This document shows, piece after piece, positions 1 to 63,090 of a DNA stretch of 64,000 nt. The DNA lies in the NCBI GenBank assembly GCA_951406725.2, contig OX597842.1, positions 29,202,001-29,266,000 of the forward strand, read 5' to 3'. Every line of letters starts with the position of its first letter. Position 1 is the first letter of the stretch. This DNA comes from Octopus vulgaris (Eukaryota). Position numbers and translations under genes: made by a program. The notes below the pieces were generated by a model. That model did not search any database and was not told the origin of the DNA. It saw only the letters and a program-made list of their open reading frames with translations.

Positions 1-405
1 AAATTTATAGAAATTTATTACAGTTATTTTATACTCACCAACAGACTCTACTTTTTCTTTACACTTTGAACATTCTGAAATAAGAATTGGAAATATAAGA
101 ATGGAACCTGTTCTCAGTCATTCACACAAATAATATATCTCAGGTGAAGGTAAAATTTATAGAAATTTATTACAGTTATTTTATACTCACCAACAGACTC
201 TACTTTTTCTTTACACTTTGAACATTCTGAAATAAGAATTGGAAATTAATAATGGAACCTGTTCTCAGACATTCACACAAATAATATATTTCAGGTGAAG
301 GTAAAATTTATAGAAATCAATTACAGTTATTTTATACTCACCAACAGATTCTCTGCAACCGTCTGGACTGCTTTTTCTTCAGGCTTTGGACACACTGAAA
401 TAAGC
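1..405 (-). repeat. Copy A tandem micro-exon array (151-152 bp period): micro-exons 342-394 (53 nt), 191-226 and 39-74 (36 nt, [12 protein letters not shown])
   Basis: Each unit has TTTCAG acceptor and GTGAGT donor; homologous to 48160-49140; array runs off the window start. Confidence 0.8.
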
Positions 406-3400
406 ATTTCAAAGTTTTATACTTCATAGTAAAATTTGTTTGTGTCTTTTAATAATCTATATTCCATTATTGTAAGGCATTCATATCATCAATAGTCAAT
501 TGGTGACCACTATGCTTTCGGTCAACACTTTCTAAGCTGTTACTACATAATAGTTCAATATTTAGAACCACAACAAAATAGGCAAACCTTTCGAAATCTC
601 ATCTTTCTCTTAAGACATCCTATATACTAATCTAACAATTCTGAAATTCTCTCACTTAGTTATCACTTCATAACACTCTTTTTCTCTTAGTTTTGTCGTT
701 TCTTTCTTATGTCTTTGCTGGACAAGTTTAACGCAAAATTTCACATTGGTTATTTGTTCCTGCTCATTAGAAAATTGCAGACTACAGCCTACAAATGACC
801 ACAAAAGCACAAATTTCACAACTTTTGAAGTAAACGCAGTGGTGTCACCCAGCACACTGCCTCATGAAAGTCACTGCTAGCTCTCACTGTGCGCGCAACG
901 GTGTGCTGCCATCTGTTGGCATGCTACAGAACTAGTCCGTGAATTTTCTGATACCACCTTGGAGCAATGACCAGGCTTCATGTTCGAATTAAAATGAATC
1001 AACTCAAAAGTAAAACCAAAAGGTGAAAGAGTCAGAAAACAATGTCTCTTTTAGCAGTAATCACATCTAAAAGCTAACGAGTGTGAGTATAAAATGTCTA
1101 AAAGGATGGCAAACCTTATAACAAGTGTCAATCATATATAGTTACGAACAAGGAGTTGCATGTTCAAATCTCACTGGAACGCATATTTTATTCCTATCTG
1201 TATATTTTATGTTAATACCAATACTTTGTTTAAATGTAAACATGCTCAGAGTTCAATACTCAATTTAACGAAAGTTATTTGAATATCAATATTTTTAAAC
1301 AGATTTAATATTATATTGCTTTCAATTTATATCTAAAATATATATTCTAACCAGAGACATTCTGGGTATATAACCCCCCACCCCCCAAGAAACACCATGT
1401 CTACACAGGTGGAACAGAAAATGGCAACAGGTGTCCTCAAACACTCTACACTTGCATAAAAACCTCATTAACTACATATAACTGTTCATCCATATAATTT
1501 GCAGTGCAAATACCTGAAAAGGCACAAAAAAACTGCTTCTCAAGAATCTAGGATATTTCTCACAACCTTCTTCTAGATATCAATCAAAGTTTCCTCACTC
1601 GTTTAATGACCCCTCTCTGAATCTGTCACATTGCAATGGGGTGAAAACCCAGCTACAAACAAATTTGAGGACACAAAATTTATACCTCTGTACAAGGGTT
1701 TGACAGACACAAACTGTCTTTCCGATGTTGTACTTAATAGAAAAATAACATTACAAGGAATATGTAACACTACTCACTCCCCATTCCACCACAAATGATA
1801 ATTGAGATCAACTAATTGAAAATGCCTCTACAATGTTTTATAAATTACATCTAATTAGTGTTGGTGAAAATGGTTGGGTCAATTTTCTGCCACTCATTGT
1901 GTGATACTAATGTTATTTCATATTTTTTCATTGAATATCTCATCAATAACTTATCAGCTGTTAATATTTGTTGAAAATGTCTCAAAAGAAATCGATTCTT
2001 AAAGCTCAAAGGTCTCAAATCACTGCATTATCAAGTGAAGGATTCTCTCAATTTGAAATTGCAAGAAAACTGAAATGCTTGAGAAAAGATTTCCATCAAA
2101 AGGTACAATGCGATAAATTATTTCAAAAATTGTAAAGGACAAGGTCGCAGAACGTGTACAACCACGAGGGAAGACAGGTTGCTGAAGAGGACATCACTGG
2201 CGGATGGGAAAAAACACCTCTTTTGACGAAGCTGCTGAGTTTTGGGTGGCAACAAAAAAAGATATATCAACTTCAGTGAGAAGAAGAAGAAGGTTATTAG
2301 AAGTTGAGTTCAAAGGATGTAAGGCCAAAAAGAAGCTGTTACTGTCTGAGGGGAACATGACGAAGCAATTGTGTTGGGCAAAAGAGCATGAAGATTGGAC
2401 TGCTGATGATTGGGCTAAAATTGTTTGGTCCGATGAAAGTAACTTTGATATATGTTCTCCACATTCAATTCCACCACTTTACTAGGCATAATTGAAGTTC
2501 TTACACTTGTACAAATTTTTTTATTTGTTACCAGAAATGATCAGTAATTTTTTGTTTATCTTCAGATCTTTGGAAACTCAGGAGCTGTTTATGTTCACTG
2601 TAAAGTAGGGGAGGTTTATCATCCTGGATGTGTGGTCCCAACAGTCAAATTTGGATTGGGAAGTGCAATTGTTTGGGGTTGCATGTTGTCTTAAGGCCCT
2701 GGAATGTTGTTCACTTGTAAGGGCAGAATGAATGCCCACACTTACACCAACATGTTAGATCAAGTTTATCAACCTTCTTTAGCTAAAATCTTCAATGATA
2801 ACACCCCAGATGGCAAAATCATTCAACAAAATATTTCTGCATGCCACACATCCAGAGTCTCAATGGGTTGGTGAGGAGAAAGGGATGAGGGTGATGAAAT
2901 GGCCTCCTTAGTCTCCAGACCTCAATCCCATTGAATATGTGGTGACACTTAGGTGCAAAAATGCTCTTGAAAAAGCGAATTAGAAACCAAAATTCATGGA
3001 GAGTGGCAGAAAACTGACCCAGCCACTTGTGCCAACTTAGTCTCAAGTATGCAAAAATGCCTAAAAGCACTTATAAAAGCAAAAGGAGGACACATCAAAT
3101 ACTAATTATTGATGGGATCAACTCTAGAATGTTCATCAGACTGTTTTCAATTATTAAGTAAATGAGTTTCAATCATATTCCCTATTTTATCATAGCTGCT
3201 CTATAATTTTGGCCAAGGTTGTATATATTTATCAACAAGGATTTGTGTGTTTGAGTCACACTGGGAACTCATCTTTTATTTCTATCTCTGTATCGTATGC
3301 TAGCATCAATACTTTGTTTAAATATAAATACATGTTCACAGTTCAATACTAATTTAGTACTGAATGAAAGAAATTTATTGTTCAATATTCTTATACTGAG

Positions 3401-62500: not shown

Positions 62501-63090
62501 ATAGATGGAGGTGAGAAATAATTTCTGTAAGAAATTTACAGATTATTTACTGCCAAAACAAGCTTGAGAATCTTTCTTCATGTTTTAGATCTCAAATAAC
62601 ATTTTCTTTGGAGAAAAATTGATCGATCTCTCCAAAATCAATATCAAGAGAGGACACTGAATCACACAGCGTCAATCTTAAGAATTGTTGGATCTCAAAG
62701 AATATCTCCAAAACAAAAAGAATCTGTTATGGCAAGAAATGATGAAAAGATTTTTGTGATTCAATGAAGATGATTCATGGAGAAAATGAGAAAAAGATGT
62801 TATTTGGTTACTACTATCATGTTGTTATCGTGTCACACTGCCACTATTATGGTATCTTTGGATATTCAAATAGTCTGGAATTGCAAGAAATTTTGAAACA
62901 AAAGCAGATCTGAAGATTTTAGTTAATTCAAGCCTTACTTATCCACAGCATAATGCAATGCTGTCCTCTTGTCTTTGTCTCCGATGTTGAGATCAGCGCC
63001 AGATTCTGTCAATAAGGTTATTAAACTTATGCTGCCTCGTTCACAGGCAGCCATGAGTAATGTAAGGCCATTTGAAGTTGTTTCTTTAAC
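44307..63090 (-). CDS. Gene copy B (5'-partial): ankyrin-repeat / RING / Cys-rich micro-exon repeats / death-domain protein
   Basis: Exons 62939-63090, 61380-61536, 59986-60344, 57002-57038, 53533-53745, 51086-51261, 49980-50122, six 51-nt micro-exons (49080-49130, 48914-48964, 48748-48798, 48582-48632, 48416-48466, 48250-48300), 45854-45925, 44307-44512. Sum 1821 nt = 606 aa + TGA, all phases compatible; first exon lies beyond 64000. Confidence 0.9.
45854..45925 (-). CDS. Copy B death-domain 5' exon ([24 protein letters not shown])
   Basis: 72 nt, phase 1-1, TTTCAG / GTGAGT; L..V...LG..W..L joins GRELG of the last exon. Confidence 0.85.
46480..47150 (-). mobile_element. Decayed non-LTR retrotransposon RT fragment
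   Basis: GIAVGCTQS and FMDD motifs; 46515-46660 resembles 1400-1560. Confidence 0.65.
48160..49140 (-). repeat. Copy B tandem array of six 166-bp units, each a 51-nt phase 1-1 micro-exon plus 115-nt intron
   Basis: Exon ends at 48250, 48416, 48582, 48748, 48914, 49080 (exact 166 spacing); each TTTCAG...G|GTGAGT, no stops; encodes 17-aa repeats such as [17 protein letters not shown]. Confidence 0.88.
49980..50122 (-). CDS. Copy B RING-finger exon ([38 protein letters not shown])
   Basis: 143 nt, phase 2-1, all zinc ligands retained. Confidence 0.92.
50316..50900 (+). mobile_element. Mariner transposase 5' remnant
   Basis: TACAAGGGTGGGCTGAAAA end; [12 protein letters not shown]...[21 protein letters not shown] and WVPRLL motifs; only its first ~40 bp survive in copy A (4401-4438). 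Confidence 0.85.
51086..51261 (-). CDS. Copy B exon 7
   Basis: 176 nt, phase 0-2; [21 protein letters not shown]. Confidence 0.85.
52426..52909 (+). mobile_element. tRNA-derived SINE, family 1
   Basis: Full-length copy with expanded internal (TA)n. Confidence 0.88.
53533..53745 (-). CDS. Copy B ankyrin exon 6
   Basis: 213 nt, phase 0-0; RTPLLEAV...GNNCLHL. Confidence 0.88.
54596..54915 (+). mobile_element. tRNA-derived SINE, family 1 (3'-truncated)
   Basis: Homology to 52426-52909. Confidence 0.8.
55193..56128. repeat. (TACA)n/(TGCA)n/(CA)n microsatellite
   Basis: Direct reading. Confidence 0.95.
56128..56672. mobile_element. Unclassified GC-richer insertion, probably retroelement UTR
   Basis: Bounded on both sides by (TACA)n and absent at the orthologous position of copy A (~10480). 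Confidence 0.45.
57002..57038 (-). CDS. Copy B 37-nt exon 5 ([12 protein letters not shown])
   Basis: CAG / GTTAGT, phase 2-0. Confidence 0.8.
57308..57537 (+). mobile_element. tRNA-derived SINE, family 2 (degenerate copy at ~4866-5078)
   Basis: GGCGGCGAGCTGGCAGAAACGTTAG...GAGTTCATGTTCCGCCGAGGTCGACTTTGCCTTTCATCC. Confidence 0.8.
57610..57693 (-). ncRNA. Degenerate hammerhead ribozyme motif
   Basis: ggu-CUGAAGA-guagc...gcuuu-GAAA-cauacg-UA-gcc; stem II has a mismatch. Confidence 0.4.
57870..58322 (+). mobile_element. CR1-type LINE 3' end
   Basis: [13 protein letters not shown]...[15 protein letters not shown]2 C-terminus followed by a short TATCTAAGT repeat tail. Confidence 0.7.
58329..59241 (-). 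mobile_element. Internally deleted mariner element with both TIRs
   Basis: Imperfect TIRs TGAGGTGGGGACCCAAAAG / CTTTTGGGTACCCCTCTCG flanked by [47 protein letters not shown] fragments. Confidence 0.85.
59986..60344 (-). CDS. Copy B ankyrin exon 4, 3.5 repeats ([19 protein letters not shown]...)
   Basis: 359 nt, phase 0-2, same splice context as exons 4a/4b. Confidence 0.92.
60530..60830 (-). mobile_element. tRNA-derived SINE, family 1 (internally deleted)
   Basis: Homology to 6826-7240; absent at the equivalent site of copy A. Confidence 0.85.
61380..61536 (-). CDS. Copy B ankyrin exon 3
   Basis: 157 nt, phase 2-0, [12 protein letters not shown]. Confidence 0.9.
61921..62098. repeat. Imperfect palindrome of the same Penelope-like family
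   Basis: AATGGAGTTGAACGAC arm and GAAACATATGTCGA half-hammerhead on both arms. Confidence 0.75.
62939..63090 (-). CDS. Copy B ankyrin exon 2 ([19 protein letters not shown]...RTALHYAVD)
   Basis: 152 nt, phase 0-2, CAG / GTAAGG. Confidence 0.9.

Follow-up and report, generated by a model that had tools for sequence, protein, structure and literature searches.

Two paralogous genes and their exons

Two related genes, A and B, lie on the minus strand of the window, a 64,000-nucleotide stretch of Octopus vulgaris DNA (Table 1). For B, the first-pass annotation had described an open frame of 606 aa, and joining the in-window exons (63090 to 44307) by splice sites and coordinates gave exactly this length with 0 internal stops; the full-length protein has 634 aa once exon 1, from just outside the window, is added. 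Single exons of B scored above the Pfam thresholds for Ank, zf-C3HC4_3 (E 5e-11) and Death (E 4e-7), and a scan of its database model, P0019, returned Ank, RING and Death and nothing else. The 3' junctions of B, which link the RING to the death domain (DD), look spliced in RNA-like runs, these being contigs of guessed RNA type that carry no level or tissue.

Table 1. Exons of genes A and B, in window numbering
Gene	Feature	Position	Strand	Remark
A	exon 1, ATG	29000..29083	minus	gene start 29083
A	exon 2, ankyrin	25328..25482	minus	
A	exon 3	17238-17082	minus	within 16065..17238 block
A	exon 4	16627-16065	minus	563 nt = 155 + 4 x 102
A	exons 5 (13717-13561) and 6 (13107-12749)	12749..13717	minus	second copy of exon 3-4 block
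A	exon 7	10771..10807	minus	37 nt
A	exon 8, MIB-type ankyrin	7866..8075	minus	210 nt, same as MIB2
A	exon 9, last MIB-type ankyrin	5207..5382	minus	
A	exon 10, RING	4066..4208	minus	
A	micro-exons	39..394	minus	394-342 (53 nt, frame-shifting), 226-191, 74-39 (36 nt)
B	exon 1, ATG	65079-64996	minus	1 kb past window end
B	exon 2, ankyrin	62939..63090	minus	152 nt, phase 0-2
B	exon 3, ankyrin	61380..61536	minus	157 nt; length and phases match MIB2 exon
B	exon 4, variable ankyrin array	59986..60344	minus	359 nt = MIB2's 155 nt + 2 x 102 nt
B	exon 5	57002..57038	minus	37 nt, phase 2-0
B	exon 6, MIB-type ankyrin	53533..53745	minus	absent from P0019
B	exon 7, last MIB-type ankyrin	51086..51261	minus	176 nt, same as MIB2
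B	exon 8, C3HC4 RING	49980..50122	minus	MIB2 RING1 descent; 5/5 E2-contact positions matched
B	six micro-exons	48250..49130	minus	51 nt, phase 1-1, 166-nt period
B	micro-exon units	49130-49080, 48964-48914, 48798-48748, 48632-48582, 48466-48416, 48300-48250	minus	
B	DD exon 1	45854..45925	minus	72 nt
B	DD exon 2 and stop codon	44307..44512	minus	

Gene A continues for up to 5.3 kb past the window start, where two further 36-nt micro-exons and both of its DD exons are found. Its first micro-exon breaks the frame, and A is open (820 aa) only with that exon skipped. Exons 5 and 6 repeat the exon 3-4 block, owing to an internal duplication of about 3.5 kb (93.5-93.9% identity). We counted 16 ankyrin motifs in A and 9 in B which, with the N-terminal cap repeat, agrees with the earlier estimate of about 17 versus 10. 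A and B are separate genes and not uncollapsed alleles: their DD exons 2 are only 73% identical, and the Octopus sinensis counterpart of B (P0001) is 94% identical to P0019.

DD exon 1 is the source of the micro-exons, which are shortened copies of it and undergo alternative splicing. Their description as six Cys-rich repeats holds for the number of units in B and only in part for the cysteines, a CxxC motif being present in 4 of these 6 units and in 15 of 66 units over 20 loci. Given this scarcity and a linker pLDDT mostly below 50, a zinc-binding Cys array finds no support as a family-wide feature; the prediction for the micro-exons is a disordered spacer whose length can be adjusted.

A large family derived from Mind bomb 2

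The likeness to Mind bomb ligases pointed out in the first-pass annotation could be pinned to MIB2. Exons 1-8 have their intron positions and phases in common with octopus MIB2 in 8 of 8 cases, and exon lengths of 157, 176 and 210 nt are common to both. In addition, the RING tree derives the family RING from MIB2 RING1, RING2 sequences forming a separate clade (100/99) that includes 0 family RINGs, and the MIB1 ankyrin structure 8V0E ranked second among fold matches. The family is thus built from part of the MIB2 gene and a death domain. In comparison with MIB2 and MIB1, it has kept the ankyrin block and RING1, expanded the variable ankyrin exon and multiplied into dozens of copies, whereas the substrate-binding N-terminus is missing: the models, with their ATG, begin at the first ankyrin repeat and lack the MZM (MIB-HERC2, ZZ)/REP region, and none of the 10 MIB_HERC2 matches in the genome is on contig C29 or C31. 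The terminal coiled coil and the catalytic RING (RING2 in MIB2) are missing as well, micro-exons and a DD standing after RING1 in their place. The parts lost are those that MIB proteins need for Notch function (bioRxiv 10.1101/2024.03.01.582834), and it is via its MZM domain that human MIB2 acts on DD-signalling complexes (PMC5912950).

The genome contains 101 non-retrocopy matches to the last-ankyrin exon, 71 of which are followed in order by a RING and a DD, so that the family counts at least 71 loci, A and B included, a figure that is approximate because some near-identical C29 loci could be haplotype duplicates. No stop interrupts the three matched exons in 67 of these 71 loci. Pseudogenes, partial copies, retrocopy arrays and frame-shifted micro-exons also belong to the family; 11 loci, and likewise model P0089, have no detectable RING exon, and the models show no evident signal peptide or membrane segment. 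Rather than a single one-to-one orthologue, we thus found many paralogues, carried by three Octopus species whose subfamilies interleave; this interleaving is the sole use made of the family tree, the backbone of which is unresolved and the automatic DD labels unreliable. All named relatives that we found are from Octopus; for the PDB and the protein collection, where generic ankyrins swamped the HMM search with alignment A2, this is weak evidence of absence outside the genus. The literature searched did not yield a description of the family, and supplementary files, for instance those of the 2015 octopus genome paper, may list the expansion. In databases, it is masked by automatic names such as 'MIB2-like', 'ankyrin-3-like' and 'RF_0381'.

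Diversifying selection on the ankyrin face and the death domain

Diversification at the gene, exon and sub-exon scale, as proposed earlier, is borne out by the number of loci, the repeat steps, the micro-exons and the block duplication in A. The shortest open frame of the variable ankyrin exon has 86 aa and the longest 323 aa, most size steps being of about 34 aa. For the binding face, we used the six positions randomised in DARPins, a set fixed before counting. In 40 disjoint closest repeat pairs, these positions showed 44 non-synonymous versus 1 synonymous single-base codon differences (p 1.7e-4), and the remaining 28 repeat positions 61 versus 29. Codon models gave an omega of 3.97, above 1, for the predicted binding face and of 0.66, significantly below 1, for the framework (LRT p 9e-7 and 0.001), with the reservations that recombination between paralogues violates the assumption of a single tree and can raise omega artificially, and that natural ankyrin repeats are generally variable at these positions. 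Positive selection at the predicted binding positions supports the variable ankyrin part first suggested. The counts for the last-ankyrin exon (15 to 4) were uninformative.

The same trend extends to DD exon 2 (omega 1.97, p 2e-4), which in 9 of 10 pairs has diverged further than the intron preceding it; between A and B, both flanks are more alike than the exon for 7 of 10 exons. All four combinations of RING type and DD type occur, modules having been shuffled between paralogues.

Membership of the death-domain superfamily is supported by Pfam Death scores above cut-off and by a helical DD predicted at high pLDDT. The best PDB sequence matches of one family DD were ankyrin-3, RIPK1 and PIDD, and the best octopus matches outside the family were RAIDD-like (contig C14, 75.54-75.60 Mb) and PIDD-like (contig C10, 44.45 Mb) DDs, at 48 bits, which suggests a PIDDosome-like output. 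FADD (contig C26, 2.42 Mb), a neighbour of MIB2 at a distance of about 90 kb, was considered as a source of the DD and rejected, as it is a single-exon gene scoring 28 bits against the 48 of these proteins. The complex predicted for the DD of B and the RAIDD-like DD scored 0.01, a value that speaks neither for nor against the pairing. A single conserved adaptor serving all members would not easily fit a DD that changes so fast.

Is the RING a ligase?

The idea of conserved ubiquitination and signalling modules found no support in this analysis, since the DD diversifies and the retained RING is RING1. RING1 is not required for the activity of human MIB2 (PMC7815719) and is inactive in MIB1 (bioRxiv 10.1101/2024.03.01.582834), which makes family-wide ligase activity doubtful. 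On the other hand, conservation of all eight zinc ligands is at least 90%, or complete, in most columns, and CPICR, in which the RING of B ends, is kept by all but one of the closest RING exons (17 of 18; pN/pS 0.66); a CPKCK type also occurs among the paralogues. The window subfamily matches 5/5 E2-contact positions of MIB1 RING3 versus two for octopus MIB2 RING1; all five are present in only 5 of 36 family RINGs and 30 match three or fewer, this score being a rough guide because RING2s themselves reach 3-4.

A proposed function and its rivals

Since the predicted binding surfaces evolve unusually fast, the family proteins are likely to be variable intracellular sensors for immune or cell-death signalling. 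The reading that we favour, at a probability of about 0.55, is a MIB2-derived repertoire of variable cytoplasmic sensors in which ankyrin binding would lead to DD clustering and then to caspase or NF-kB signalling. The fast-evolving ankyrin face would serve to capture a protein that is foreign or altered, presumably of pathogen origin; the ligand-bound proteins would cluster through DD oligomerisation, and the clustered DD may recruit a death-domain adaptor, possibly a RAIDD-like CARD-DD protein or FADD, whose recruitment would switch on the pathway. In a subset including A and B, DD clustering could stand in for the lost coiled-coil dimer of MIB2, and the clustered RING1 is predicted to attach ubiquitin to the bound target or to the complex. 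In most other subfamilies, the RING would be structural and the proteins would act as sensors or adaptors. The immune role itself is one that we infer from sequence. A more ambitious formulation, which we hold only tentatively, is an octopus repertoire of intracellular immune receptors drawn from a Notch-pathway ligase, with about 80-100 DARPin-like binders, shuffled repeat, RING and DD modules, paralogue-specific DD assembly codes and one subfamily with a reactivated RING1.

The proteins could instead be restriction ligases similar to TRIMs, the ankyrin repeats picking a foreign protein, the RING ubiquitinating it for destruction and the DD mainly multimerising. The conserved zinc ligands and CPICR and the complete E2-contact set of the window subfamily would fit, but descent from a RING unneeded in MIB2 and inactive in MIB1, the low E2-contact matches of most family RINGs and the RING-less loci and P0089 make this unlikely. 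Diversifying selection is also compatible with non-immune conflicts, and one would also wonder whether the family is a recognition code for cell identity, allorecognition, or germ-line or selfish-element conflict, with a DD that removes mismatched cells. Ankyrin face and DD both diversify, as matched pairs would, and intronless retrocopies show that at least some members are expressed in the germ line or the early embryo; large neural gene-family expansions are moreover known in cephalopods (PMC9068888). We consider this less probable still, given the lack of any evident signal peptide or membrane segment and the place of both ancestor and DD in cell-death and innate signalling.

Another hypothesis is that catalytically dead MIB2 derivatives act, free of any sensing, as decoys or dominant-negative regulators, capping DD complexes (RIPK, FADD, RAIDD) or tuning them. 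The loss of the catalytic RING2 is in line with it, as is the possible mild autoinhibition by the first two RINGs of MIB1 (bioRxiv 10.1101/2024.03.01.582834), yet it is improbable, leaving a binding-face omega near 4 and dozens of open copies unexplained. Neutral birth and death, affecting a unit prone to duplication on small chromosomes rich in repeats, would account for the pseudogenes, partial copies, retrocopy arrays and frame-shifted micro-exons and for a framework omega that is fairly high; it is largely refuted by the contrast between site classes, the framework being constrained and the binding face above 1, and the occurrence of interleaved subfamilies in three Octopus species also speaks against it.

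Comparison with known receptor families

A parallel can be drawn with NLR families (the animal DD-NACHT-LRR proteins), fungal NACHT-ankyrin receptors being a further comparison of this type. As in NLRs, paralogues are clustered, repeat number varies, binding positions of the repeats are hypervariable under diversifying selection, modules are shuffled and the effector is a death fold. The octopus family differs by a C-terminal effector, an E3 ligase origin and the lack of a NACHT/NB-ARC switch: Pfam detected none in P0019, and the genome has only 2 NACHT matches (contigs C17 and C19), one of them NWD1-like, so that no NLR expansion was detected in octopus. TRIM restriction ligases also combine a RING with a rapidly evolving recognition domain and form gene clusters, but the octopus RING is central and followed by a DD, and the Pfam scan and the models show no N-terminal RING/B-box/coiled coil.

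PIDD in the PIDDosome, RIPK1 and the ankyrin-type DD proteins share a repeat sensor and a C-terminal DD with the octopus family. Here, however, the repeats are ankyrin and not LRR, ZU5/UPA and kinase are absent, and the genes are RING-bearing, multi-copy and diversifying; Pfam did not find the LRR-ZU5-ZU5-UPA-DD layout of PIDD in P0019, and that likeness is limited to the DD. ANKDD1A/B, near in Atlas feature space, have ankyrin repeats and a C-terminal DD but no RING among the listed Pfam families (three at most), and the MIB2 exon structure belongs to the octopus genes. Finally, one study (PMC8917759) describes oyster BIR-DD-RING IAPs, in which DD and RING are likewise joined in a molluscan lineage-specific expansion, IAPs being least expanded in Octopus; they carry BIR and not ankyrin, place the DD before a terminal RING and are of unrelated origin.

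Altogether, the family represents a candidate recognition system, both large and fast-evolving, in an animal with poorly characterised intracellular immune sensors, and it makes octopus recognition of intracellular parasites and viruses testable. It also offers a natural collection of ankyrin binders whose diversified positions are those randomised in protein engineering, and it documents with unusual clarity how a developmental E3 ligase was rebuilt, one exon after another, into a receptor-like family.

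Structure and splicing of copies A and B

Self-comparison of the window, which lies at 29,202,001-29,266,000 of contig C29 in the 2.8-Gb genome (G000), confirmed the two colinear minus-strand copies described in the first-pass annotation. The open frame of 606 aa that it had read for B also held: sixteen joined exons with canonical splice sites encode 634 aa, 606 of them within the window. For A, we found 17 candidate exons, and the frame is open at 820 aa with a 53-nt micro-exon skipped. Pfam likewise recognized the proposed ankyrin, C3HC4 RING and Death domains. The database protein model for B (P0019, labelled Octopus vulgaris) is the same as ours apart from one exon missing in P0019. 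Its AlphaFold model (mean pLDDT 79) combines a RING and a helical death domain (DD) with a confidently modelled ankyrin solenoid; the micro-exon linker is of low confidence.

The splicing of B was read from the contigs of four presumed RNA runs, each of a different study, aligned to it at 93% likeness; close paralogues may have contributed joints. GT-AG joints coincided with the predicted exon coordinates: last ankyrin to RING, RING to micro-exon 1 and DD exon 1 to 2 in all four runs, micro-exon 4 to 5 in three, and micro-exon 5 to 6 and micro-exon 6 to DD exon 1 in two each. Exon-skipping joints were also present, and no contig among these runs covered RING through DD. At the 3' end of A, micro-exon to DD joints were observed in three RNA-like runs and were absent from a large, DNA-sized run of unknown kind. 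An O. sinensis gene has 15 listed RefSeq isoforms; the 12 parsed combine a common N-terminal part and a common tail with 12 different linkers. Finally, tandem arrays of intronless, stop-ridden retrocopies were found, each copy containing the last ankyrin, a RING remnant, linker and DD inside about 900 bp.

Features of the window and related loci of the genome
Feature	Position	Remarks
Satellite in A intron 2	window 18606-22776	4.2 kb; 99-101/210-bp period
Assembly gap between A and B	window 33193-33292	100 N
Short Cys-rich, PAN-like exon between A and B	window 34088-34420 (-)	weak PAN/apple match (E 0.04); possible signal peptide
Database protein model P0046	window 34060-34281, 17082-25482	by eye: apparent alternative-frame start over PAN-like exon, A exons 2-3, then exons of another paralogue
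Short TTAGGG-like array	window 43588-43705	just past B 3' end
PAN-like exon clusters	C29:16.9-18.5 Mb; C8:78.1-78.8 Mb	61 matches in genome
Retrocopy arrays (L005, L006)	C1:216.93-216.97 Mb; C1:102.72-102.73 Mb	
Canonical MIB2	C26:2.514-2.570 Mb	MIB-HERC2 domains, ZZ-like exon, ankyrins, two RINGs
Further MIB2-like loci	C26:0.75-1.32 Mb; C20:45.05 Mb; C27:36.36 Mb; C30:3.17 Mb	several with two RINGs, no DD match; candidate intermediate stages
FADD (DED + DD)	L136:7482-8057 (C26:2.42 Mb)	single-exon; ~90 kb from canonical MIB2
Related DD exon pairs (L027-L030, L147-L148)	C26:12.81-12.93 Mb	four pairs; intron position as in family
Tandem DD matches (L153)	C14:75.54-75.60 Mb	three; RAIDD-like CARD-DD protein at the one examined

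The PAN-like exon represents a second expanded family, of small, probably secreted proteins. P0046 is a probable annotation mis-join.

Size and distribution of the family

Single-exon searches of the genome gave at least 134 DD, 121 last-ankyrin and 57 RING matches. Exon matches were paired by position, after adding 41 RING positions near family loci hand-picked from 149 Pfam matches. The 121 last-ankyrin matches comprise 20 in the retrocopy arrays and 101 elsewhere; 71 of the latter are followed by RING then DD, with no stop across the three matches in 67 cases; a DD alone follows at 11, a RING alone at 15 and neither at four. C31 carries 33 and C29 carries 27 of the 82 loci with a DD.

In collections without squid or cuttlefish genomes, all named matches were from Octopus (18/18 in one search, 26/26 in another). 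Twenty divergent matches were taken from a HMMER scan of 1.84 billion representatives; 19 came from O. vulgaris, O. sinensis or O. bimaculoides. In the family tree, members from O. bimaculoides nest in subfamilies together with the other two species. The remaining one, P0162, is a long ankyrin-ZU5 protein without RING match, having a MIB-like last repeat and, by eye, a DD-like tail; it could be an independent parallel to the family. Another model, P0005, is either a tandem fusion or a mis-join: it contains an internal RING remnant and a DD piece, and then a second block of ankyrin, RING and DD.

Derivation from MIB2

The family is derived from MIB2. The MIB2 exons match family exons 1-8 one-to-one in boundary and phase, with lengths (MIB2 to family) of 149 to 152/155, 157 to 157, 155 to 359 or 563 (155 plus multiples of 102), 127 to 37, 210 to 210/213, 176 to 176 and, for RING1, 197 to 143 nt. 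A RING tree with 48 rows places the six RING2 sequences in their own clade (100/99), with no family RING inside. Altogether, these data indicate that the DD took the place of RING2, joined to the gene at the phase-1 intron that follows RING1. DD-less ankyrin proteins that carry two RINGs were also found and are plausible intermediates. The micro-exons correspond to DD exon 1 minus 21 nt and have both flanking introns in common with it. Twenty loci carry 0 to 7 units each; 5 of 66 units have a length not divisible by three, in one case probably through a parsing artefact.

The best PDB matches of a family DD were ankyrin-3, RIPK1 and PIDD. When the family DD profile was scored on 11 other octopus DDs, the related group at C26:12.8 Mb came first (55 bits), followed by a RAIDD-like CARD-DD and a PIDD-like DD (48 bits each), ankyrin (32 bits) and FADD (28 bits). 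No ankyrin was found in the 20 kb examined near that group, whose DD pairs are preceded by low-complexity exons; one locus seems to have more than one DD exon 1. An exon-by-exon search gave only two NACHT matches in the genome, a lower bound.

Diversification of ankyrin repeats and DD

We extracted 92 distinct 102-nt repeats from 30 of 37 variable-exon matches and discarded one with a frameshifted start. The four most variable columns all fall among the six positions randomized in DARPins; several of them contain many W, Y, H and F residues. Among 40 disjoint closest pairs, these six positions showed 44 non-synonymous and 1 synonymous single-base codon differences, versus 61 and 29 at the remaining positions. 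Either of two RING types can be found paired with either of two DD types, which demonstrates recombination, a source of diversity that also calls for caution with tree-based p-values: codon-model omega was 3.97 at the six positions (different from 1, p 9e-7), 0.66 elsewhere in the repeat (p 0.001) and 1.97 (p 2e-4) in the 20 DD exons most similar to that of B. Less tree-dependent are the pairwise results and the exon-versus-intron comparison, in which 9 of 10 pairs had a DD exon more divergent than the intron upstream of it. The RING exon of B shares 87-100% identity with the 18 RING exons closest to it (13 to 6 changes).

What could such a protein do?

According to PMC7815719, cFLIP ubiquitylation by human MIB2 needs the second RING and not the first; bioRxiv 10.1101/2024.03.01.582834 reports that ANK-RING1-2 of MIB1 is inactive and that its N-terminal region together with the last RING is enough for Notch signalling. 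MIB2 binds RIPK1 via its MZM domain (PMC5912950). The family has lost the parts essential for known MIB functions and kept dispensable ones, so that it does not qualify as a Notch-ligand ligase. All five E2-contact positions of MIB1 RING3 are matched by the window's subfamily and two of them by octopus MIB2 RING1; of 36 family sequences, 30 match three or fewer, subject to a possible misplacement of the pattern in a few (two or three) rows.

By membership tests, the family belongs to none of MIB, NLR, TRIM and PIDD. No description of it was found in the openly accessible full texts searched, nor in passages of PMC9068888, PMC13218726 (including section 12), PMC7656900, PMC6522055, PMC10970066, PMC4199593, PMC9646362 and PMC8917759. 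Database models with this architecture already exist, labelled automatically with unrelated names. The family is real, spliced, large and adaptively diversifying. We propose that it most plausibly works like a variable intracellular receptor family.
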